64,000 bases of DNA, taken from positions 70,804,001 to 70,868,000 of the forward strand of contig NC_135817.1 in assembly GCF_964213995.1 (NCBI RefSeq), read 5' to 3'. This document shows, piece after piece, positions 38,709 to 62,600 of this stretch (position 1 is its first letter; every line of letters starts with the position of its first letter). The notes below the pieces were generated by a model, which was given only the letters and a program-made list of their open reading frames with translations, ran no database searches and was not told the DNA's origin. This DNA comes from Mustelus asterias. Its lineage: Eukaryota. Both the position numbers and the translations under genes were made by a program.

Positions 38709-41700
38709 TGTGGTGAACCATCGTTGGTTCACCACTGGGGTTTGTTACTATGTTACTGTTGGGCTAGGGTGTTGTTACTGTGGGGGTTGTACTATGTTGT
38801 TGGGTTAGGGTGTTTACCTGTTATAAGAGTTATCATGGCACATTCCAGTGGGGTCCCGCCTCCGGTGGCGAGGTATAAGACCCCCTGCTCCGGCAGGACT
38901 CCTTCAGTCTGAACTGGTGTATTCGTGTTAGTAGTTCCATTGTTACTTTATTAAAGCCTTCAATACCGAAGCCTTGGTTCCATGTGCTTATTGACGCGCG
39001 TCAATTTAATAAAGTAAACAGAAAACTCACAACTGTGCAACAAGAAGAAAAAAACAGAGAGTATGGAACAGATTCTAAAACCGGATCGTCTGACACTGGA
39101 CCCACGTGCGGTCGGTGCAGCTAACACATTCGACCATTGGTGGAAGTGCTTTGAGGACTACCTGGCAGCCTCGGTAGCTATCACTACGGACAGTGATAGA
39201 CTCCAGGTCCTCCACGCAAGGGTAAGCGACACGATTTACCTAGCCATTCGTGCAGCTCCCACTTACCAGGGTGCCGTCGAGCTCCTACAGAAAAGATACA
39301 CTATGCCACTCAACGAGATACACGCTCGTTACCTCCTCGCTACACGACGTCGGCAGTCGGGCGAAACCATGGAGGATTATGCCAATGAGCTCCTGCAGCT
39401 TGCCAGGGGTTGCGACTGTAAGGACGTCTCCGCCGAACAGTATATGTACGACCTCGCCCGAGACGCGTTCGTAGCAGGGGTAGGGTCCTCGTACATCAGG
39501 CTTAAATTGCTAGAAAAGGGGAAACTCAACTTAACCCAGGCAATGGAGATGGCCGTGAGGTTGGAGGCGGCGTCGAAGAGCTTGGCGCTGTACCCCGAGG
39601 ACCACGTGCAGTCAACGTGGTTGGAGCAAGCTCAGCTCCCTCCTCGCCCCGCGAACCCGCGCTCCCAGATCGATTCGACGACGGTGGCAGCTCCAGGTGG
39701 CCAGCGATGCTATTTTTGTGGAGGGGCCAAGCATCCACGGCAACAGTGTCCGGCAAGAACGGCAATCTGCAGCCAGTGCGGTAAAAAAGGCCACTACGGC
39801 AAAGTCTGCAGGTCCAAACCTAAAAACGGCAGTGCAGCTTGTAACCCTCCAGAACGGAGACCATCTCTTTCGGCGTTGCAGTACCCACGAGGTCCGACCA
39901 CGTGCGATCTCAGGACGGCGCCATCGTGGCAGACAGAGGAGGAGGAAGACCACCAGGAGTCGCTGCGCTTGGCGCCCTCGCCCACGTGCGATTCATGGGG
40001 GCGGCCATCATGGTCCACGACGACTAGGAGCGACCAGCAGGGGTCTTCAGCATCCACATCGGCAGCATGCAGTGACGCCCAGGGGCCAACGGTGGCGTCG
40101 ATCTCCCTGGATCAGACCAAGCATTACAGACTGGAACATTCTATGATGGAGGTAAAGGTTAGTGGCAGAACTGTGAATTGTCTGTTTGACAGCGGAAGCA
40201 CCGAAAGTTTCATACACCCTGAAACTGCTAAAAGGTGTGGACTCCGGATTCTCCCTGCCAAACAGACAATTTCCATGGCATCACGGTCCCGGTCTGTACC
40301 GATCCAAGGACGATGTATGGTAACTCTTGAGGTACAGGGCACAATTTACGAGCAATACAGGCTCCTTGTGCTACCTCACCTTTGCGCGCCAATTCTCCTC
40401 GGACTAAACTTTATGGTCCACATGAAGAGTGTGATCCTACAGTACGGTGGGCCACTCCCTTCACTGGCAGTAGGGAATCCGCCGCAGCCTCCAAATTGCC
40501 CAAAGCGCCCCGCGTGCAATTTATCCACCCTGAAGATCACGACACCATCCCTTTTTAAAAATCTGGTTCCTGGCTGCAAGCCCATCGCTACTAAAAGTAG
40601 GCGTTACAGCGCTGAGGACCGGATCTTTATTAGATCTGAGGTTCAGCGGCTCCTCAAGGAAGGGATCATACAGGCCAGTGCTAGTCCGTGGAGAGCGCAG
40701 GTCGTGGTAGTCAAAAGCGGGAACAAACCTCGGATGGTCATCGACTATAGTCAGACCATTAATAGATACACGCAGCTGGATGCGTATCCTCTCCCGCGCA
40801 TTTCTGATATGGTCAATCAGATTGCGCAGTACCGAGTGTTTTCTACCATAGACCTTAAGTCCGCCTACCATCAACTCCCCATCCACCCAGAGTACCGACA
40901 ATATACGGCTTTTGAGGCGGATGGTCGTCTATACCAATTCCTCAGGGTTCCATTTGGTGTCACCAATGGGGTCTCGGTCTTCCAGCGTGCTATGGACCGA
41001 ATGGTGGACCAGAACGGGTTGCGGGCTACCTTCCCGTACCTGGATAACGTCACCATCTGCGGCCATGACCAGCAGGACCACGACACGAATCTCCAACACT
41101 TTCTGCGCACTGCATCTCGCCTGAATCTGACCTATAACAGGGAGAAGTGCGTATTCCGTACGCGTAGGTTAGCCATCCTCGGATACGTGGTGGAAAACGG
41201 GGTCATTGGCCCTGATCCAGACCGTATGCGCCCACTCACTGAACTTCCCTTGCCCGCTAGCACGAAAGCACTGAGGAGATGCCTCGGGTTTTTTTCATAT
41301 TATGCACAGTGGGTCCCCAACTACGCGGACAAAGCCCGTCCGCTCATTAAGTCCACGACCTTTCCACTTACGCCGGAGGCCCAATTGGCCTTCAAGGTTT
41401 TGAAGAGCGACATCTCGAAAGCCACGATGCACGCGGTGGATGAATCCATCCCTTTCCAGGTGGAGAGTGATGCATCTGACTTCGCCCTAGCCGCCACACT
41501 AAACCAGGCAGGCAGGCCCGTCGCGTTCTTTTCCCGCACCCTTCAAGGCCCAGAAATTCGGCACTCAGCGGTGGAAAAGGAGGCTCAGGCCATTGTGGAG
41601 GCAGTCAGACACTGGCGCCATTACCTGGCAGGTAAGCGGTTCACCCTGATCACGGATCAACGATCCATGGCGTTTATGTTCAGTAACACGCAGAGGGGCA

Positions 41701-43480
41701 AGATCAAGAACGATAAGATCTTGCGGTGGAGAATTGAGCTCTCCACCTATAATTACGATATTATGTATCGTCCAGGGAAGCTCAATGAGCCCTCGGATGC
41801 CCTCTCGCGCGGAACATGCGCCATCATGCAGGAGGACCGCTTGAAGGCTCTCCACAATGATCTGTGTCATCCTGGAGTCACCAGACTCTACCACTTCATC
41901 AAAGCCCGCAACCTGCCTTACTCGGTGGAGGATGTCAGGTCAGTGACGAGAAGCTGTCGGATTTGCGCAGAATGCAAACCACACTTTTATCGACCAGACC
42001 GGGCACAATTGGTCAAGGCCACTCGCCCTTTTGAGAGGCTGAGTGTGGATTTTAAGGGCCCCCTTCCCTCAACGGACCGGAATGTCTATTTTCTCAACAT
42101 AATAGACGAGTATTCCCGGTTTCCGTTTGTTTTCCCCTGTGCGGACACGTCAACTGCCACCGTCATTAAGGTTTTCAGTGAACTTTTTACCCTGTTCGGG
42201 TACCCCTGCTACATTCATAGCGACAGGGGCTCGTCGTTCATGAGCAACGACTTGAGGCAATTCCTGCTCTCATTCGGGATTGCCTCTAGTAGAACCACGA
42301 GCTACAACCCTAGGGGTAACGGACAGGTGGAAAGGGAGAATGCTACAGTCTGGAAGGCTGTCCTACTGGCACTGAAATCCAGGGGCCTTCCAGTCTCCCG
42401 TTGGCAGGAGGTCCTTCCAAATGCGCTCCATTCTATCCGCTCCCTCCTGTGTACGGCAACCAATGCTACTCCCCACGAGAGGATGTTCTCATTCCCTCGG
42501 AAGTCGTCCTCGGGGACCTCATTGCCAGCCTGGTTGACGTACCCAGGACCCGTCCTTCTGCGGCGCCATGTGAGGGCTCGCAAGTCCGACCCCTTGGTCG
42601 AACCAGTCCAACTCCTCCACGCCAACCCTCAGTATGCCTATGTGGCATATCCTGACGGGCGAGAGGACACTGTCTCCATTAGAGACCTGGCGCCCGCAGG
42701 GGACGTAGCAACTCCTGTCGCTCCTATTCCCCCAGTCACGAATCCACTACTCCTCATTACTTCCCCAGACGTGGCGCGGTCAGCACCGGGACCAGTGCAT
42801 AACACCTTTACTCCCATGTACAGCTTGCCTGAGACTCGGAGATCGGCGCCACCATCATCATCACCACCACCACTACCACCAAACGTTCCAGGATCCCCTG
42901 CACCATCGCCTCACCAGGGCCGGCCGGCCCGGGAGTCCTTGAGGGGACAGCCAGACGTTGCTTTGGAAAGAGCGCCACCACAAGCACCTGCTCCGGTTTC
43001 GCAACTGGTGTTGAGGAGATCGGCACCTGCTCCGGTTTCGCAACCGGTGTTGAGGAGATCGCAGCGTCGGTGCGGTCCTCCAGACCGTCTGGACTTGTGA
43101 ATCCTGTGATTTTTCTGTTATTGTCTGTTTATATGACCTGTTTTTCGTCCACCCCGCCACCTTTTGTTCTTAAAGGAGGGGTGAATGTGGTGAACCATCG
43201 TTGGTTCACCACTGGGGTTTGTTACTATGTTACTGTTGGGCTAGGGTGTTGTTACTGTGGGGGTTGTACTATGTTGTTGGGTTAGGGTGTTTACCTGTTA
43301 TAAGAGTTATCATGGCACATTCCAGTGGGGTCCCGCTTCCGGTGGCGAGGTATAAGACCCCCTGCTCCGGCAGGACCCCTTCAGTCTGAACTGGTGTATT
43401 CGTGTTAGTAGTTCCATTGTTACTTTATTAAAGCCTTCAATACCGAAGCCTTGGTTCCATGTGCTTATTGACGCGCGTCA
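38709..43480 (+). mobile_element. Intact, recently inserted Ty3/Gypsy LTR retrotransposon (Mag-like)
   Basis: 295-bp LTRs 38709-39003 and 43186-43480 (2 differences seen), TG...CA, 5-bp TSD ATTCA, PPT aaaggaggggtgaa 43172-43185. Confidence 0.97.
39063..43100 (+). CDS. Gag-Pol polyprotein (1345 aa): Gag with two CCHC knuckles, protease, RT, RNase H, integrase
   Basis: CYFCGGAKHPRQQC, CSQCGKKGHYGKVC, LFDSGS, YLDN, DASD, HHCC and D-D-E (VDFKG, HSDRG, QVER). Confidence 0.96.
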   Translation: MEQILKPDRLTLDPRAVGAANTFDHWWKCFEDYLAASVAITTDSDRLQVLHARVSDTIYLAIRAAPTYQGAVELLQKRYTMPLNEIHARYLLATRRRQSGETMEDYANELLQLARGCDCKDVSAEQYMYDLARDAFVAGVGSSYIRLKLLEKGKLNLTQAMEMAVRLEAASKSLALYPEDHVQSTWLEQAQLPPRPANPRSQIDSTTVAAPGGQRCYFCGGAKHPRQQCPARTAICSQCGKKGHYGKVCRSKPKNGSAACNPPERRPSLSALQYPRGPTTCDLRTAPSWQTEEEEDHQESLRLAPSPTCDSWGRPSWSTTTRSDQQGSSASTSAACSDAQGPTVASISLDQTKHYRLEHSMMEVKVSGRTVNCLFDSGSTESFIHPETAKRCGLRILPAKQTISMASRSRSVPIQGRCMVTLEVQGTIYEQYRLLVLPHLCAPILLGLNFMVHMKSVILQYGGPLPSLAVGNPPQPPNCPKRPACNLSTLKITTPSLFKNLVPGCKPIATKSRRYSAEDRIFIRSEVQRLLKEGIIQASASPWRAQVVVVKSGNKPRMVIDYSQTINRYTQLDAYPLPRISDMVNQIAQYRVFSTIDLKSAYHQLPIHPEYRQYTAFEADGRLYQFLRVPFGVTNGVSVFQRAMDRMVDQNGLRATFPYLDNVTICGHDQQDHDTNLQHFLRTASRLNLTYNREKCVFRTRRLAILGYVVENGVIGPDPDRMRPLTELPLPASTKALRRCLGFFSYYAQWVPNYADKARPLIKSTTFPLTPEAQLAFKVLKSDISKATMHAVDESIPFQVESDASDFALAATLNQAGRPVAFFSRTLQGPEIRHSAVEKEAQAIVEAVRHWRHYLAGKRFTLITDQRSMAFMFSNTQRGKIKNDKILRWRIELSTYNYDIMYRPGKLNEPSDALSRGTCAIMQEDRLKALHNDLCHPGVTRLYHFIKARNLPYSVEDVRSVTRSCRICAECKPHFYRPDRAQLVKATRPFERLSVDFKGPLPSTDRNVYFLNIIDEYSRFPFVFPCADTSTATVIKVFSELFTLFGYPCYIHSDRGSSFMSNDLRQFLLSFGIASSRTTSYNPRGNGQVERENATVWKAVLLALKSRGLPVSRWQEVLPNALHSIRSLLCTATNATPHERMFSFPRKSSSGTSLPAWLTYPGPVLLRRHVRARKSDPLVEPVQLLHANPQYAYVAYPDGREDTVSIRDLAPAGDVATPVAPIPPVTNPLLLITSPDVARSAPGPVHNTFTPMYSLPETRRSAPPSSSPPPLPPNVPGSPAPSPHQGRPARESLRGQPDVALERAPPQAPAPVSQLVLRRSAPAPVSQPVLRRSQRRCGPPDRLDL

Positions 43481-50070: not shown

Positions 50071-51749
50071 TGGAAACAGTATCACGAATGTGTATATGCA
50101 GTAAAATAGCATATGAATTGGCTACAGTGCTAATTATTTCTTTACAGTAGAATTCTGCTTTTTATGCCCAAGTCCTTGCTCCATTTAGATATACGCTTCC
50201 TCTATATCATCTCAGATTACTGCAATTCAATATTTTCACGCTAGGTCTCATTTTTTCCATTAAAAAAAAGGTTATTTATTAGTCACAAGTAAGGCTTACA
50301 TTTAACACTGCAATGAAGTTACTGTGAAATTCCCCTAGTCACCACACTACAGCACCCGTTCGGGTCAATGCACCTAACCAGCAGGTCTTTCAGAATGTGG
50401 GAGGAAACTGGCGCACCCGGAGGAAACCCACGCAGACACGGGGAGAACGTACAGACTCCACACAGACAGTGACTGCTCTTAACATTGCACAACTGAAATG
50501 TAAAAGCTTCACATAAATCCAAGCTGAAAATAAGTAAAATACACAAAGGAAAATGTCNNNNNNNNNNNNNNNNNNNNNNNNNNNNNNNNNNNNNNNNNNN
50601 NNNNNNNNNNNNNNNNNNNNNNNNNNNNNNNNNNNNNNNNNNNNNNNNNNNNNNNNNNNNNNNNNNNNNNNNNNNNNNNNNNNNNNNNNNNNNNNNNNNN
50701 NNNNNNNNNNNNNNNNNNNNNNNNNNNNNNNNNNNNNNNNNNNNNNNNNNNNNNNNNAACATTGCACAGTGGTTATCACCGCCAGGAACGCTTTTCATTG
50801 CAATTACCATTTCAGTCCATGTAAAGACGCTATAGAAAAGGAAGATTCATCTACTAAATTGCATTGCAACATAACTGATCTGATTGAAAGAGTGCAAAGA
50901 TTTCATTAGATACACAATGGTATTGGACAAGACCACAGTTGACTTTCTGGTAATTAACAAGAAGCAAGTGACCAAAGTCTGAAAAATAGTCTTAAATAAG
51001 TGAGGTATATGTTCTGATAGAATCAACTGTACCTGATTCAACATCTGAAATAAGAACAGTAAAATCCAAACTCAACATCTGCTCCTGTGTAAGTTATAAC
51101 TGTTTAAATTCTATGCCAACACACCAATTCTAGCCCTTTAAAATCAGAATTTAGGGGACTTTTCCGATGTCCCTTGATGTTTGCAGCACTATGCAACCCC
51201 ATCCATCTCTCATTATGTTCAGAAAATAATGCAGTGATGGTGGTGTATGTGGGGGGGGGGGGGGGGGGGGGGGGTGAAGATGACACGGTGGCACAGTGGT
51301 TAGAACTGCTGTCTCACAGCACCAAGAACCCGGGTTTGATTCCTGGCTTGGGTCACTGCCTGTGTGGAGTCTGCACATTCTCCCAGTGTCTGCGTGGGTT
51401 TCCTCCGGGTGCTCCGGTTTCCTCCCACATTCTGAAAGACCTGCTGGTTAGATGCATTGACCCGATTGGGCACTGTAGTGTGGTGACTAGGGGAATTTCG
51501 CAGTAATTTCATTGCAGTGTTAAATGTAAGCCTTACTTGTGACTAATAAATAACCTCTTTTTTAATGGAAAAAATGAGACCTAGCGTGAAAATATTGCAG
51601 TAATCTGAGATGATATGGAGGAAGCGTATATCTAAATGGAGCAAGGACTTGGGCATAAAAAGCAGAATTCTACTGTAAAGAAATAATTAGCACTGTAGCC
51701 AATTCAGATGCTATTTTACTGCATATACACATTCGTGATACTGTTTCCA
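50071..51749. repeat. About 400-bp inverted duplication (50071-50473 / 51352-51749) containing SINE plus unique flank, spanning the gap
   Basis: tggaaacagtatcacgaatg... is the reverse complement of ...cattcgtgatactgtttcca; a few substitutions and a small indel. Confidence 0.9.
50558..50757. other. Assembly gap (200 N)
   Basis: Exactly 200 N, a fixed-size scaffolding gap. Confidence 0.99.
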
Positions 51750-52756: not shown

Positions 52757-54704
52757 TCAAAAATTTTCAGTTATTAGAGGTAACTTGCGCAGTTGAATTT
52801 TATTGAAAGTTTTCGTCTTTTTCATTCACTGAGAATGAAGTTGGAGCAGATTCAGTTGTGGCTATCAAACAGGGAAATGGATAAGCACCCGAATAGCCAG
52901 CGCAGGGGAGTGGAACAAGCTAAGTTCTTCTTGCAGCGGCTGGCGCTAGCTCAATGGACAGGCAGGAGATTGATGCAGCCAGAACCACAGATGTGGAAAC
53001 AAAAACAAAACAAGATGATCTCTGTTGCTAGGATGCTAACTGGTAGGAAACTTTGGCTCATCTACATTTACCTTTGGACAAGAAAATGAACCAAGAACAT
53101 GCAAATGATAGAAAGTACAAGAGCGAGACAAAACCATGTATGTGAAAGGGACAAAGGTGTTACCTTCGGACACCCGCTATGCTATCAGAGAAAGTTTTGC
53201 TAATTCCACAGAACAGTATTACACACCACTTTCAAACAAATGAAGAAGTCTGTAACTTGATATTGTGAGTACAGTATGAATCTGATTAATGCAACCTAGT
53301 TACAATCTGCCAGTGTGTGTCTATCTGTTCTGTAACCATAACATATCAAGGTTTATTTGGTGAAAGGTCACAAGTTGTCTTGCGTTTCTCTGCTGCATGG
53401 GCAATGAAATAACAACTCTGGTACACCTTATCCTATGTTCTATTCAGATTTATTAACAGCAAAAATCAACTCGTAGCAAGATGTCAAAGCAGCAAGTTCT
53501 GTAAAACTACAAAAGAAAGTTCACAACTCCCAGTTGCAAAGTATTAAAATGTCATGTTCTAGCAACCGTCTTGAGAACCTGAACTAGCATTAGTAATATG
53601 GTTATAACTTTGCTGACCCAGTGATCTCTGAGTTTCATAGGGCGATTGAGAGATAAAATATTGAGTTAAATAGATGGTTTCCAGACCTCACAATAGATGT
53701 TAGAGATTAATCCATTTGGACCTAAACCTGTGCTGCTTATTTTCGGAACAAAGCCAGCAGTCTATCTACACAGCCTCACGGAGGAAATTCCCCACAGAGT
53801 ATCTTCCCAGAATATTCTGTCCATACATAGAGGTCCATGGGCGACATTTAACCCTGGGATAAACGTGCATTTTGTCGCAGCAAATAAACTGAAGCAACTT
53901 AAACATCATGAGTACCTCCAAAGCTTTTACATCTGAAGACATAAATGACTACCACCTTGCAGAGGGCAGATTTCTAATCCACCATAGCGAGAATGACTAT
54001 CTTTTGGAATCAGTAAAGTGAAATCCCCTCGTGAAGGTGAAGTGGCTGAGCAGAACCCAGGATAGAATCTGATGTACATGATCTTTGGAAATAATATTAA
54101 TAAATGTTATTAATTAATAAATATTAGTTAATAATAAACAATAAATGTCTTTTTCTTATCCCATGTTTCCTTATGTTCTGATCATGAGCTATCAATTACA
54201 ACTGCAGAAGAGTTGCTGCTGTGTGATGTTCAAAGTTTTTAACTTTCTGCATTGCGGCCTTAATACTTATTATGGGATGTTTGGTGCCCCAATTTCTCAC
54301 CTATAAGAAAGTGTGCTGAGATGGCTCCCAACTCATCTTCCACTCAACACCAACAATTCATATTAATATAGCATCTTTACTATAATATAGCATCCCAAGG
54401 TGCTTCATTCACAGGAATATAAATATCTCTAGAGCCAGCAGAGAGAGTGTCATTATCTCATTAGACTAGGCAGCTTGTTTTAAGGAAAATAACAGTAATG
54501 TAATGTACGGATGCAAGCTGTTTCTTTACATTTCTTGCAGGCTAGGAAATCTCACTGTGATCCTTTGCAAATGCCTAATTTGGTACCTTTGGCAGTTATC
54601 ATGCTTTTATTCTCGTGTTACTTTGTACCCTAATGCACTATGAATGATAAGGTTACAATACCTTTGCAAGATATTATTTAGTCATTTATAGTGTCTTGAA
54701 TTGT

Positions 54705-55055
54705 GGGGAGGCAAAGATGGCTTAGTTGTATAACACTGCTGGGGAGCTGGGATTCGAACCCAGCTCCCCAGAATATGATTATAGTTACTTCGCTAGACTA
54801 TTAATCCAGAAACTCAGCTAATAATCTGGGGAGCTGGGTTCGAATCCCGCCATGGTTGATGGTGGAATTTGAATTCAATAGAAAAAAAATCTGGAATTAA
54901 GAATCTACTAATGACCATGAAGCCACCGTTGATTGTTGGAAAAACCCATCTCATTCACGAATGTCCTTTAGGGAAGGAAATCTGCCATCCTTACCTGGTC
55001 TGGTCAAATGTGAATCCAGACCCAAAGCAATGTCTTAAATGCCCTCAGAATTCAT
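54705..55055 (+). mobile_element. tRNA-headed SINE-like element with local inverted duplication
   Basis: Family of 33843; 13-bp perfect hairpin at 54739-54771. Confidence 0.75.
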
Positions 55056-55921
55056 GAACCAGATAGATTTTTACAACAATGGTCCCTGAATTACTTGTCC
55101 AGTGACATTATCACTAGGCCACCGTATCTCAGTATGGTATGTGCACAAATTACGTTAATAAATTCACGCATATAATTTTTACTCATAATTTCCTCAAAAT
55201 CATGCTTTTAGAGATGGATCCCGACAACATTGGCTCTACATTTGTATATCTATCTGATGACTTTGTTGTGGGAAAAATGCCACTTTGTGAGTCAGGCTTG
55301 AAGGTTTCAACAATACAGTTTTATTTAACGAAGCTTCGTGGAAAAAAGGCACTCGCACTCTGCAATGCTTCTAGACACCTTCTCTCAATGAGACAATAGG
55401 AGCGGTCCATCTTTATAACCTTTACACAATAGATGGACCGGACATCTAGCCATTATCACATCATTGTAATCAAGTAGGTGATCGATCGTTAAACACATCG
55501 TTATAGACAAATACAGACAGATACAGACATAAGCATGTTAACATCGTATTGTTCTATGAATGGATACATTCCCTACGTCAGTGACTATCAATGACTTTAG
55601 TTTCAGTCTATTCATACAGTAGTTTACAGTAATTGGTTTCCCTGCAGTTATGTATTCCCGATCCCACCTGTAGTTAATCTCATTATCTATCCCTATTGTC
55701 CTTATCTTTAAGCCCTGGCTAGCTTCCTGTAGGATTTGATTCCTGCATGTTTAACTTTGGATAGCTGTCTGTCCTTTATGTTTTAATCTCAGGTGGCTGT
55801 TTGTACTGAAAGTCAGTGTCTGTTTAATGTCTCTTTCCCAGGTGACTGTTTGTGTGCCCATCTGTATATTTTTCCTCCTTCAGGTCCCCACTTTTGGTCG
55901 GATTATGAGTTTCACTAATCC

Positions 55922-57540
55922 TTAGACCAACAATACAATTTTTAGATGTATAATTCTTTGTTCTTCTTCTTTCCTTCTTCGTTTCTTCTGATGTCTTTGG
56001 GGCTCTTCATCAGGGTTTCTTCTTCGATGTATACACTGGCTCCTGGCACAATTCATGTCACCATCACCTTGCAACAGACTTTTAGGCATCCAACAATGAG
56101 ACAACAGACAATTACAATTGAAATGAGTATGACCAATCCATGTAATAAGTAAGATTCCCAGGACCCCCCCACTAGCCATTCCAGCCAGTTACTTCCTTTC
56201 TTGGGTCCCTGTCTGAAGCTATCAAGTTGTTCTCTGATGCTATTGATGACCTGTGTAATGTTATAGGACTCGTCTGTGACATGGGTTATGCATTTATTGC
56301 CTATAATTGTACACACTCCCCTTGTTGTGCTAACTGATAGTCCACTGCGTATTGTGTCTGTTATGCATATAATCTCAGTTCAGCCATTTCTTGGTTGACA
56401 GCCTCCAGTGCTTTTGAAGTGCTGTTTCCCAGGACTGTTAGTCCACAAACAATATGATTCCTATTCTTTGCACTAATCACTCCTGCTGCCCCCTCCAGAG
56501 ATAAGGCTCCAAGGAACCCATATCCCAGTGAGGATCCCATTGTGCCCGGGGCTTCCCAGTCAGCGCAGAATTCTTTGCTGATAGCCTGAGTTACTATTCT
56601 CCTCCGAATATGCCCCTTTTGAGGGCACGGAACAGTCAGTGGTCTGATTGTTCCTACTGCAAAACGGTTTGGGAGGTTTGGTGTTTCTGTCATGTAAGTA
56701 CCATTGAAGAGGAATACATATCCCTTCTTAGCCCAGTAACATTTAGTGTCCCGATTATGAGTTTGTTTATATTGCCAATTGTTTGGTTTACTTGACACCC
56801 CGTTTGATCCCACCACCTGGTAAATATCAAATGGGTATGTCCATTTGTCTGAGCTTACGTGAGTTCCATTGCATTGTCCACAAATAAGCTGTCTTCCCGC
56901 AGATATATTCAGACATTTCTGTTCATCACAAGTGCAAGTAAACTGTCCCTTATTAACCCGACAATGTTGACAGACACACTGCGTCTGTACGCAGGAATCA
57001 TTCTTAGGGACCAAGGCATAGGCACATCCCCATCCCTGCCCCGTAAAACGAAGCGGATAGCTTGCATTATCTGAACAAGCTTTTCCTCCCACCTGTTGGA
57101 ACCCCCTGCACACAGGATCTGTGGGGTTTACAAGTCCCACACATCTCCCCTGTATATCTCTTTTATATTTGCCAATTTGTCCCTTACAGGGTGCATCTGA
57201 TGTATCTACTGATTATAAGTCATGAGGGGTCCACCCAGGGGTGGCGACAAATAGGGCTTCTACCGATTGTGCTAACAGGTAACATACAGTTCGATTCCTG
57301 TGTAAATGTATGTGAGCTTTGTAAAACAAGTTATCCTCCAATCCAGTCAAATTTACAGTCACGACAACGCAAAGTAGTACAGTTACATACGCGATTACAT
57401 ACATATTCGCAACAATCAAATATCAAACCTAACACTATAATTCTTATAATCTTTACAAGTTATATTATCTATCAACCCACGCGCGCCAGCCGTTCTTGCT
57501 TGCAGTCTTTGCCTGCGTTGAGGAAAGCATTTTCGTTAGT
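55922..57540 (-). pseudogene. env: Retroviral env (SU-TM), disrupted by stop and frameshifts
   Basis: Basic cleavage site HIRRR, fusion peptide GFLGALSLEGAAG, ISD-like QTQYAVDYQLAQQG, CX6C, TM LLHGLVILISIVIVCCLIV. Confidence 0.88.
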
Positions 57541-57552
57541 TCATCAATTTAA

Positions 57553-58046
57553 TTACTTATTTGTCCCCTTGTATATTTTTAGCTGTGTCCAATGCTTCCA
57601 GACCCCTTTCCCTCTTATGTCTAGACAGGCACAGGTGTCTCCACTAATTATAACCTCATATGGCCCATTCCATTTTGGTGCAAACCCTTGTTTTTCAGGT
57701 AATGTTTTTACTAGGACGCGACTTCCCGCTGTTGGAATGTCAGGGAGCACTTCAAGCTCTCTCTCTGCGTCTTTTATTTCCTGATTGTCCTTTACCAATT
57801 TGCGCATCCTTTTTAGTTGGGTGCTTAGTTCCAGAACATATCTCCTGATTTTATCTTTTAGTGGACCTACATCGGTCCAACCTGTTATGATGCTTTCGGG
57901 TAATTGCATCACCCGTCCTGTCATTAGCTCATAAGGGGTTAATCCGGTTGTCCGGTTTGTGGTAGCCCTTAATCTCATTAGTATAGTGGGCAATACCTCT
58001 GTCCACATTTTTCCCGATGTTTGTATGGCTTTAGCTAATGCATTTT
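57553..58046 (-). pseudogene. pol: Retroviral integrase C-terminal fragment
   Basis: WTEVLPTILMRLRATTNRTTGLTPYELMTGR and PKWNGPYEV motifs. Confidence 0.88.
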
Positions 58047-58776
58047 ACATTTAACTACATATCCCCCTTCCATAGAAAGCGTAGTGTGAATTAAATAACA
58101 CTTTGTACTGGCCTTTTTTAGCTGCAGCTGGACATCCATTCATTTGTATGTAATCTTATCAAAAGACATCGCTTTCCTCATTAAAATCACATGCCATACA
58201 GTTCCGATCTTTATATGATGTACTCTTACATTATCTCTAATTTGATCATTTGTTTGCGTGCAAGCGCCGCACCACAGTACTTCACAAAATAATTATGTCT
58301 TTATCAATACACAATATATAGTCTATAAATATATCATACAAAGTTGGTTAAGGCTTTTCAGGATTTGATTTTATGCTCGGGTCTATCTGGCAATGCTATA
58401 CTGTATAATAAAAATAATCAAGCGGCAGTTGTATCATACCACTTTACACATCGTAACCGTGATATCCAAACCCCTTTAATTCAAGCCGTTTCCATTTTTA
58501 AACTGAGCTCCAGATCAAAACCCCCGCAGTGCTTCTAGACAGCTACCTTCTCTCAATGAGACAATAGGAGCGGTCCATCTATTGTGTAAAGGGTATAAAG
58601 ATGGACCGCTCCTATTGTCTCATTGAGAGAAGGTAGCTGCCTAGAAGCACTGCGGAGTGCCAGTGCTTTTTCTCCACGAAGCTTCGTTAAATAAAACTGT
58701 ATTGTTGAAACCTTCAAGCCTGACTCACAAAGTGGCATTTTTCCCACAACAACTTGACCATTTAATTTCTTGAAGA

Positions 58777-58903
58777 CAAACAAAGAACAAAGAACAAAGA
58801 ACAATACAGCACAGGAACAGGCCCTTCGGCCCTCCAAGCCCGCGCCGCTCCCCGGTCCAGGATTGAATCCTGAATCCAGGATCCCCGCCCAATTTTCCAG
58901 CCT
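58777..58903 (-). mobile_element. Short 3' end of the CR1 subfamily seen at 36024
   Basis: Near-identical to 36024-36139. Confidence 0.85.
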
Positions 58904-59689
58904 AGACATTTAAACATTTTTGCTGTCACACAAATGGAATCAATAGTCTCTTCAGAATTCAGTAGGATCTTCAGAATTGGACACAATAAAATGTAGAGTA
59001 CTGCACTGGGCACGTGACAAACTTTTTACTGGCAATTGTTTGATTTTCTTACTATATAATCTATTTATCAGTTGTAAATCATGTGTTGATTAGAGATGTC
59101 TTTAGCAGAGTACAAGAAGGGTATGTCAAACTTGGTCTGACGTGTGGGACTCGAGACCCACAGCAATGTGGTTAACACTTAAATGCTCTCAGAATTGGCC
59201 TCGCAAGCTACTCAGTTGCGGCAATGAGGGATGGGTGACAAGTTCTGGCTTTGCCTGTTACACCCACAGCCCATGAGGGAATACATTTAAAAACAACACA
59301 GACTGGTTTCAAACAGATGTGAGACAAGGCATTTGTGTTAAATTATACCAGTGGATTAAATCCACTGGATTTTAACAGAAATGTTAAACATTTAAAATAG
59401 CTTAATCTTTTCCATCTCCATGTATTTAACTGGTTTCCTGTACTTAAGTGTTAAATAGATCACATCTTAGTATGTGTTATTTATTTCACTGTATCGTCAT
59501 GCCTGATTGCCGTGTATTCCCATAAATGACATATTTATCCAAATCAATCCAAATCTTGGCAAAAAGGTAATACAGAAGACAAAAACAGATGTACCCTCAC
59601 AGTCCACAGCAATTATGTTAGAAACCATTGCAGCATTATTCCATAAACAGACCCTTTCATTAGAGAAGGAATCCACAGGCCCAGGTTCA

Positions 59690-62600
59690 TGATCTGGGGA
59701 CATTGGGTTCGAATCCCACCGTGGCAGCCAGTGGAATTGAAAAACATCTGGAACCATCCACCTATTTCACTCATGTGGGGAAATTTTCCCACCGTAGGAA
59801 TCTTAGCGAACGGGAGGGCGGGGGTGGGGGGAGGGGGGGGAGGTTGTGGCGGGTGGACCATGAAAAGATCTGTTGATCTCAGACGGGATTTTCCAGTTTT
59901 TGGTCGAACGAGGCCAGAAAATCCCTGCCCATGTCTCTTCAGGAAAATAAATCTGCCATCCTTACTTGGTCTGGCCTACATGTGAATCCAGACTCAGAGT
60001 AATGTAACTCTTAAATGCCCTTTGAAATGGCCTAGCAAGCCACTCGGCTACAAAGTCTGAAAGGAATGAATCCAAACAGGCACTGGAAATGACAAACGGC
60101 AAACCCAGCCCTGTTGACCCTGAAAAGTCCTTACTATCATCTGGGGCTTATGTCAAAATTGGGAATGCTGTCATGCAGCAGCTTGACATAGTCATGCACG
60201 CAGAATCATACCCTTGAGGCAATGGCCCAGACACCATCACCATCCCCGGGTATGTACTGTCCTGCTGACAGGACATCCCATGTTAACCCCCCCCTCCTCC
60301 CCAAGCTCCTCTGCCCCACCTTTTTAACTGATGAACCAATGCTCTTCCAGGTTGAACACCTTTGGAGAAAGCACTGAGAGTGACAAGGACTCAGAATGTA
60401 CTTTGGGTGGGAGACTTCAATGACCATCGCTGAGAGTAGCTGACCAAACACCAAAGGATATAGCTGCTAGGTGGTGAGGGAGCGAAAAGTGGGAAAAACC
60501 TATTTGACTTTGTTCCTACTAATGTCAAGATGCATCTGTCCATGACGGCATTGGTAAGAATGACCGTCCTTGTGGAGACAAAGTCCTGTCTTCACATTGA
60601 GGATTCCCTCCATCGTGTCGCGTGGCACGATCACCATGCTAAATGAGATAGATTGTGATCAGATTTGGCAAATCAAGACTGGGCATTCTTAAAGTTTATT
60701 TATTAGTGTCACATGTATCTTACATTAACACTGCAATGAAGTTACTGTGAAAATCCCCTAGTCGCCACACTCTAGTGTCTATTCAGATACACTAAGGGAG
60801 AATTTAGCATGGCAAATGCACCTAACCAACATGTCTTTTGGACTGTGGAAGGAAACCAGAGCACCCGGAGGAAATCTACTTAGACACGAGGAGAACGTGC
60901 AGACTCCGCACAGTGATTCAAGCCAGGAATCGAACCTGGGTCCCTGGCGCTGTGAGGCAGCAGTGCTAACCATTGTGTCACCGTGCTGCCCATGAGGCGC
61001 TGTGAACAATCAGCAGCTGCAGAATTGTACTCAACCACAATCTGTAACCATATGACCCGGCATATCCCCCACTCTACCGTTACCACAAAGCCAGGGAATC
61101 AACCCTGGTTCAATGAAGTGTACAGGAGGACATGCCAGGAGCAATACCAGGCTCACCTAAAAATAAGGTGCTAACCTGGTGATGCTACAACACGGGACTA
61201 CCTGTGTGCCAAGAAACATAAACAGCAAGTGATAGACAGAGCTAAGCAATTCCACAACCAACGGTTCAGATCTACGTTCTGCGCTTCTGCCAGATCCAGT
61301 CAAGAATAATAGTGGACAATTAAACAACTAACAGGAAGAGGAAGCTCCCAATGATCCCATCCTCAATGATGGGGCAACCCATGTGACATAGAAGAAGCAT
61401 TTGCAACCATCTTCAGCCAGAAGTGCCGAGTGGATCATCCACTTCAGCCTCTGCCGTAGGTCCTTATTATCACACATCCAGCCAATTTTATTCACTCTAC
61501 ATGATATCAGAAAATGACTGAAGGCATTGGCTCTGACAACATGCTGGCAATGGCATTAAAGACATGTGCTCCAAAATTACCCATGTTCCTGGCATGATCT
61601 TCCAGTACAGTTACAACACTGACATCTACCCAACAATGTGGAATAGTGCCCAAGTATGTCCTGTCCACAAAAAGCGGGACAAATCCAACCTGACCAATTA
61701 CCGCCCCATCAGTCTGTTCTCAATCATCAGTAAAGTGATGGAAAGGGTCATCGGTTGTGCTATCAAGCGGCACTTACTCAGCAATAACCTGCTCATGGCG
61801 CTCAGTTTCCGGCAGGGCCACTCGGCTCCTGACCTCATTACAGACTCGATCCAAACATTGTCAAAAGAGCTGAATGCCAGAGGTGAGGTGAGAGTGTCTG
61901 CCCTCGATATCAAGGCAGCATTTAACTGGATGTAGCATCAAGCAGCCCGTGCAAAACTGGAGTCAATGGAAATCAGGAGAAAAACCCTCCACTGGTTGGA
62001 GTCATAACTAACATAAAGGAAGATGGTTGTGGTTGTTAAATGTCAGTCATCTTAGTCCCAGGACATCACTGTATGAATTCCTCAGGGTAGTGTCCTAGGT
62101 TCAACCATCTTCAGCAGCTTCATCAATGACCTTCCATCCATCATAAGGTCAGAAGTGGGAATGTTTGCTGATGATGGCACAATGTTCAACACCATTCAAA
62201 ATTCCTCAGATACGGAAATAGTTCTTGTTCACATGTAGCAAGATCTGGACAATATCCAGGCTTGGGCTGACAAGTGACAAGTGACATTCACACCACACAT
62301 GTGTCAGGCAATGACCATCACCAATAAGAAAATCCAAACATCTTTCTTTGACATTCAAGAGCATTGCCATTGCTGAATCCCCACCACCATTGCCCAGGAA
62401 CTGAACTGGGCTAGCCATATAAATATTGTGGCCACAAGGGCAGGTCAGAGGTTAGGAATCCAATGGCATAAAATCTTTTCTCCTGACACCCCAAAGTCTG
62501 TCCACCATCTACAAGGCAAGAGTCAGGAGTATGATAGACTATAATCCACTTGTCAGAATGAGTGCAGCTCTAACCATACTCAAGGAACTTAATACAAACC

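Follow-up and report, generated by a model that had tools for sequence, protein, structure and literature searches.

A retroviral remnant bounded by two inverted U5 ends in the genome of Mustelus asterias

In standard provirus integration, the viral DNA is joined to the host by one U3 end and one U5 end. When only one end has been integrated and host enzymes complete the process, much larger duplications or deletions are usually left, at least in the cases set out in PMC5041404. Self-priming from a hairpin has been described in vitro for HIV-1 minus-strand DNA, and its products are presented there as dead ends, undetected in the endogenous HIV-1 reactions of that account (PMC6088434). For Ginger1, it has been proposed that the terminal inverted repeats (TIRs) arose from two oppositely oriented LTRs, belonging to separate insertions around an integrase gene (PMC2836005). 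A literature search of main texts on U5/U5 or inverted-LTR proviruses, in which older virology was thinly covered, returned nothing relevant; its sole match to “U5-U5” concerned RNA pairing.

Here we describe a locus of Mustelus asterias at which both ends of a retroviral insertion are U5 ends. Coordinates are those of the window, the whole 64,000-nucleotide stretch that was analysed (NC_135817.1, positions 70,804,001 to 70,868,000). The provirus DNA was probably mis-made during reverse transcription, through foldback self-priming and a template jump that gave it two U5 ends, and then inserted by integrase.

Anatomy of the element

The retroviral remnant is 3,488 bp long (55264-58751) and has its viral sense on the minus strand. 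The same U5 terminus is found at both ends, with ACTT flanking each side. The initial annotation had described inverted U5 ends of about 180 bp between these flanks, and they do align over 177 bases (55264-55440 with 58571-58751), with 7 substitutions and one 4-nt gap. Both ends of the element stop exactly at the terminal CA of U5, that is, at the integrase attachment ends. A chance 4-bp match between the flanks has a probability of 1 in 217, computed from flank composition. From left to right, the features are:

55260-55263: left copy of the target-site duplication (TSD), ACTT, present only once at the empty site in relatives
55264-55882, minus strand: normal 3' LTR (U3-R-U5, 619 bp), with its U5 end toward the left flank
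55403-55440: 10-bp palindrome around the TATA box, inside the 3' LTR
55886-55895, minus strand: polypurine tract (PPT), a motif that also precedes the 3' LTRs of family members
55922-57422 (approximate limits), minus strand: env remnant in several reading-frame pieces, with a homologous ORF in another copy
57553-58044, minus strand: C-terminal part of integrase, weakly matching MLVIN_C and collinear with the end of pol in RT-bearing members
58046-58523, minus strand: segment specific to a pol-less subfamily, apparently non-coding
58524-58580, minus strand: inner arm of the hairpin, viral-sense U3-end/R of 57 nt, with a junction unique in the genome
58524-58528: 5-bp microhomology joining the inner arm to the internal segment
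58571-58751, plus strand: inverted LTR piece (TATA palindrome, R, and U5 to its terminal CA), with U5 toward the right flank
58581-58598: 18-nt loop with a TATA box, the putative turning point of the foldback, with a junction unique in the genome
58599-58655: outer hairpin arm, within the inverted LTR piece
58690: AATAAA, within the inverted LTR piece
58752-58755: right TSD copy, ACTT, for which the empty site has a single 4-mer

The interior had been read as a normal 3' LTR, a PPT, env and an integrase remnant. The LTR and the PPT are found as described. The env remnant matches Pfam Ebola-like_HR1-HR2 (E 5e-4, under the curated cut-off), and the integrase remnant weakly matches MLVIN_C (E 0.029). 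The parts reported missing are indeed missing. There is no direct-repeat 5' LTR at the element, and a search of the whole 64-kb window for the PBS, allowing up to 3 mismatches, gave 0 matches. The inner junction corresponds to a point 2.7-3.3 kb downstream of the 5' LTR in family members without extra insertions (one other member has 6.8 kb upstream of it, owing to a LINE insertion). Gag lies in this upstream stretch, which is lost from the inverted-end copy together with the PBS, about 3 kb in all. Rfam gave 0 matches across 54600-60200, and no tRNA genes were found in the 64-kb window. An assembly gap (a run of N) is present at about 50400-50750, some 4.5 kb to the left of the element, and there is no N inside it. 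Elsewhere in the window, 39018-43100 holds an uninterrupted 1,360-aa ORF which, judged by eye, resembles a Gypsy-type gag-pol polyprotein.

The right end contains a structure that the initial annotation did not mention, a 57-bp hairpin (58524-58580 paired with 58599-58655) with an 18-nt loop and 1 mismatch. The 237-nt right end folds at -80.7 kcal/mol (z -16). When the minus strand is read, the U5 tip is followed by R, then by the whole palindrome, and then by the complement of the sequence just read. This order and the orientation of the loop are what is expected from the foldback of a strand starting at the U5 end. Both internal junctions carry microhomology; at the inner one this is TGCGG, and patchy similarity continues just upstream. 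Against the outer arm, the inner arm has 1 difference in 57 sites; against the left LTR it has 2, plus a gap.

The palindrome that brackets the TATA box is a feature of the endogenous retrovirus (ERV) family. A perfect 10-bp stem is found in 32 of the 55 LTR segments scored and a stem of at least 8 bp in 43, although some loci may have been counted twice. As DNA, the LTR palindrome folds at -9.8 kcal/mol (z -3.4). It may have a role in transcription or in RNA structure.

The retroviral family and the number of copies

To judge from its sequence, the element derives from an endogenous retrovirus family with gag-pro-pol-env, a PBS, a PPT and direct LTRs. The family was sampled in the 3.68 Gb genome by exact matches to the terminal 21-mer of U5. 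These number 199, a lower bound for the family, with 75 in forward and 124 in reverse orientation, an imbalance perhaps due to chance or to the tool. The sampled members are ordinary LTR-internal-LTR elements, with the PBS two bases after U5 and the PPT two bases before U3; we take the PBS to be that of tRNA-Ser. At two loci (C23:13342314-13343794 and C5:134922238-134924676), direct U5 ends are separated by only 1.5 and 2.4 kb and appear to belong to heavily deleted or tandem copies. In RT-bearing members, ORFs match protease, RT, RNase H, the integrase core and a zinc knuckle, while the env ORF of another copy matches Ebola-like_HR1-HR2 and TLV_coat. The RT of a family member scores 130 bits against foamy RT, 120 against that of MLV, 69 against Ty3 and at most 62 against HIV. 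The scores for foamy and MLV RT are about equal, and they do not establish the gamma-like affinity implied in the initial annotation. The homologues of this RT are mostly vertebrate ERV proteins at 30-43% identity, the best being an unnamed protein at 88%.

Sixteen members were examined, picked by similarity to the queries and therefore a biased sample and no census. RT is found in 4 of the 16, and the segment equivalent to 58046-58523 is absent from all 4; in the other 12 the segment is present and there is no RT. Pol-bearing members measure about 8 kb, and pol-less ones about 5.4-6.3 kb. A pol-less subfamily, made up of gag, its specific segment, the integrase tail and env, coexists with the pol-bearing copies and must be mobilised in trans. 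Since the inverted-end copy carries the subfamily segment, it derives from this pol-less group. The comparison with fuller members suggested in the initial annotation shows that the LTR, the PPT, env, the integrase tail and the subfamily segment are collinear with theirs and about 88-97% identical.

The family's TSD is 4 bp long in 17 of the 22 resolved copies (12 exact, 5 with one mismatch) and 5 bp long in the other 5, with 2 further copies left unresolved. Solo LTRs (n=14) contribute 6 exact and 4 one-mismatch 4-bp duplications, plus 4 with a 5-bp match; two-LTR members (n=10) contribute 6 exact and 1 one-mismatch 4-bp duplications and 1 of 5 bp, and include the 2 unresolved copies.

The inverted-end element is a rare one-off accident, single-copy and dead. 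The foldback junction and the junction between the internal segment and R each match the genome once at up to 2 mismatches. Pairing within 20 kb gave 26 direct pairs and 1 inverted pair for 184 of the 199 U5 ends, and 3 direct pairs and no inverted pair for the remaining 15. Inverted ends are therefore seen in 1 of 30 paired elements, or 1 of 169 family loci, and the sole case is the element at 55264-58751; this count rests on exact U5 tips, so that copies with a mutated tip fall outside it. A copy with no PBS and with both TATA boxes facing outward should be incapable of retrotransposition, which would explain why it is single. The initial annotation had envisaged an unusual class of non-autonomous elements if the structure proved multicopy, and the genome search speaks against this. 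The element does have the outward form of Ginger elements, with terminal inverted repeats of about 180 bp, TG...CA ends and a 4-bp TSD (PMC2836005). However, the single match of each junction, the 29 direct pairs against 1 inverted pair within 20 kb among the 199 exact U5 ends, and the lack of both PBS and transposase largely refute the idea of a replicating TIR-bounded non-autonomous family, and it is very improbable that the element is a member or the founder of one.

Insertion at a single site and the routes to it

Contigs from four runs of related animals, X1, X5, X7 and X13, were compared with the locus, X1 and X13 coming from one organism in two studies. Three of these four runs are informative on the empty site. 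In X5, the left flank continues through ACTT directly into the sequence from 58756 on, and X1 and X13 have the same structure with one base of the 4-mer changed. A single-copy X1 contig bridges the flanks (55087-55260 and 58904-59168) with 21 letters between them, as expected if ACTT is present once and a neighbouring insertion at 58778-58907 is also absent. In X7 nothing covers the left flank, which is not proof of absence, and in X10 a contig ends at 55262. Flank sequences show 8 differences from the window in 161 bases for X1 and 13 in 164 for X5, so the carriers of the empty site are relatives and not the same species.

The insertion removed no host DNA and duplicated exactly 4 bases, and one insertion event at one site is supported. 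The initial annotation had asked for this check, on the understanding that flanks not adjacent at the empty site would mean two independent opposite insertions. In the relatives' contigs the flanks are adjacent, with a single 4-mer. With at least 199 exact U5 ends the family is abundant, and a 4-bp match would arise by chance once in 217, but given adjacent flanks, one 4-mer and no host DNA lost, the fusion by deletion of two opposite insertions matching by chance is rejected as hardly credible, save if both struck the identical 4 bases.

The neighbouring sequence has features of its own. The short insertion at 58778-58907, which we take to be LINE-tail-like, lies at a distance of 22 bp from the element, has what looks like an AGAC duplication, and is absent from the relatives' contigs too. 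The flanking SINE is presumably of the shark type. A 41-bp inverted pair of SINE-derived sequence, 83% complementary, is present at 54749-54848. When the left flank was used as an interrupted repeat for rebuilding the empty site, matches were found only to its SINE part.

According to the initial annotation, integrase had joined a U5/U5 substrate produced by foldback or recombination. The exact ends, the 4-bp TSD and the single empty site support one insertion at one site, and we infer foldback during reverse transcription followed by U5/U5 integration as the likeliest route. First, a tRNA-primed minus strand would copy U5-R, transfer to the 3' end of the RNA, and copy through the 10-bp palindrome bracketing the TATA box. 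Because the palindrome surrounds this box it is expected in U3, which would place the foldback after the first strand transfer. The minus strand would then fold on the palindrome and prime itself, extending over about 47 further bases of its U3-end/R. By means of the 5-bp microhomology, the folded strand's 3' end would next pair with another minus strand, or else at an internal position of a minus strand. Mutual extension would give a duplex without upstream U3, PBS or gag, and with a U5 end at each terminus. As each strand of this duplex would begin with a U5 end, integrase would be offered two valid attachment sites. Finally, integrase supplied in trans by a pol-bearing relative would process both CA ends and make the staggered cut. 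In a variant, one minus strand would make both jumps, with an identical and indistinguishable product. The order of events cannot be read from a fossil copy. This route is favoured by the single 4-mer at the empty site, by ends that stop exactly at CA, by the family-typical 4-bp duplication and by the foldback anatomy of the right end; against it stand the single case (n=1) and the account of self-primed HIV-1 products as dead ends (PMC6088434).

Microhomology at both internal junctions would also fit an origin of the right end in host repair. Here a provirus, integrated normally or by its U5 end only, would have suffered a break within or close to its 5' LTR; synthesis by a host polymerase would have turned back at the TATA palindrome or used the opposite strand of an LTR as template, and the flank would have been rejoined at an LTR tip, with the deletion at the 5-bp microhomology occurring in the same event or another. 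The LTR's own two tips form an imperfect 15-bp inverted repeat (11/15 bases shared), so rejoining at the attachment site by host repair is possible in principle, and host polymerases are described as extending an unintegrated end by copying either viral DNA strand, switching at short homologies (PMC5041404). However, a third switch would be needed, falling exactly on the CA of U5 with the exact 4-bp duplication kept. By our reasoning, joining through the longer shared run inside the tips would give a U3-type tip, but the actual one is of the U5 type. Events of this kind usually give truncated ends and large duplications or deletions in the cases of PMC5041404, and we consider host repair unlikely.

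The exact ends, the 4-bp duplication and both microhomologies are explained equally well if two viral DNAs each supplied a U5 end to one integrase complex, the break then being end-joined at an arm of the 10-bp palindrome. In the left molecule, a microhomology deletion would have spared only the inner 57 nt of the 5' LTR. Concerted integration in vitro does join two separate oligonucleotide ends to one target (PMC11054761). Yet a germ-line cell would have had to contain one complex with two complete DNAs, two deletions would be needed as well, and the inner arm is closer to the outer arm than to the left LTR, which slightly favours a copy of the outer arm, although the sites are too few. We regard this possibility as distinctly unlikely.

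Sequence divergence cannot separate the routes. The 7 substitutions over 177 bases between the element's two ends resemble those of ordinary LTR pairs (3-10, n=7) and of random family LTR pairs (median 6), and the full LTR pairs of two measured members differ by 1.9% and 3.6%. No lineage markers were found among the differences between the two ends, and no R-U5 column splits the two U3 types. LTR identity was also tried as a test of one insertion against two, and is uninformative for a family that expanded in one period.

For the closest run, the listed contig pieces include the left junction (54978-55292, 0 differences), reaching only 29 bases into the LTR; the right junction and the hairpin are not among these pieces. 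An assembly artefact is unlikely, given the private differences in the arms and a TSD that matches the empty site, with the right junction unseen in the contig pieces listed. No normal-provirus allele was seen at the locus in the few runs compared.

Comparison with known systems

Ordinary family members in the same genome are collinear with the element, about 88-97% identical to it, and have the same TSD length, but they possess direct LTRs, a PBS and gag, all of which the element has lost while gaining an inverted U5 end. Compared with a canonical provirus, it has neither direct LTRs with U3 and U5 ends nor a PBS, and it does have TG...CA ends with a TSD of family length (ACTT twice here, once at the empty site). 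DIRS-type elements have inverted terminal repeats, a tyrosine recombinase, an internal complementary region and no TSD. The element differs from these in its TSD, and its family in having a DDE integrase core.

Like the element, the aberrant HIV-1 and ASLV proviruses with one host-repaired end continue from truncated viral DNA into more viral sequence of either orientation, with short homologies where the switches occurred, and have one normal integrase junction (PMC5041404). In that account, one of their ends is usually truncated and large stretches of host DNA are duplicated or deleted, whereas the element has two exact ends and a 4-bp TSD, and is in the germ line. With its exact U5 ends, standard TSD and verified empty site, the element is good evidence, in fossil form, that U5/U5 DNA can serve as an integrase substrate in vivo.

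As proposed for the element, a hairpin at the nascent 3' end primes self-copying of HIV-1 minus-strand DNA at cTAR, in vitro, at R and before strand transfer, with a dead end as the result (PMC6088434). The element differs in its TATA-flanking palindrome, which would have acted in U3, and in a product that seems to have been completed and integrated. Self-primed reverse transcripts, though usually termed dead ends, can probably be completed. It is rather doubtful that the palindrome provides this ERV family with a recurrent foldback route to U5/U5 DNAs that integrase inserts in vivo. If it did, LTR elements would turn in one step into TIR-bounded elements ending in TG...CA and flanked by a 4-bp TSD, which is the intermediate that has been postulated for a Ginger1-type origin, and U5/U5 proviruses would be systematically overlooked by tools that seek only direct LTRs.

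Like a TIR transposon, a MITE or a Ginger element, the locus has inverted ends (177/181 bp) and a 4-bp TSD; multiple dispersed copies are lacking. Ginger1 and Ginger2, with TIRs of 40-270 bp, TG...CA ends and 4-bp TSDs, share this outward form, but are described as multicopy and as encoding a whole integrase-like transposase, whereas the element is single-copy with only an integrase tail (PMC2836005). Its inverted ends come from one insertion, in contrast to the two neighbouring insertions proposed for Ginger1 (PMC2836005). It illustrates, in nature, how one insertion can make a TIR-bounded element out of a retrovirus, and such inverted repeats bear on how LTR elements could yield Ginger1-like transposons. 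Its weight is limited, as one accident among about 169 loci that cannot spread and gives no indication of function. The element is an aberrant provirus, a known kind, and its U5/U5 ends with a clean TSD are its new aspect.
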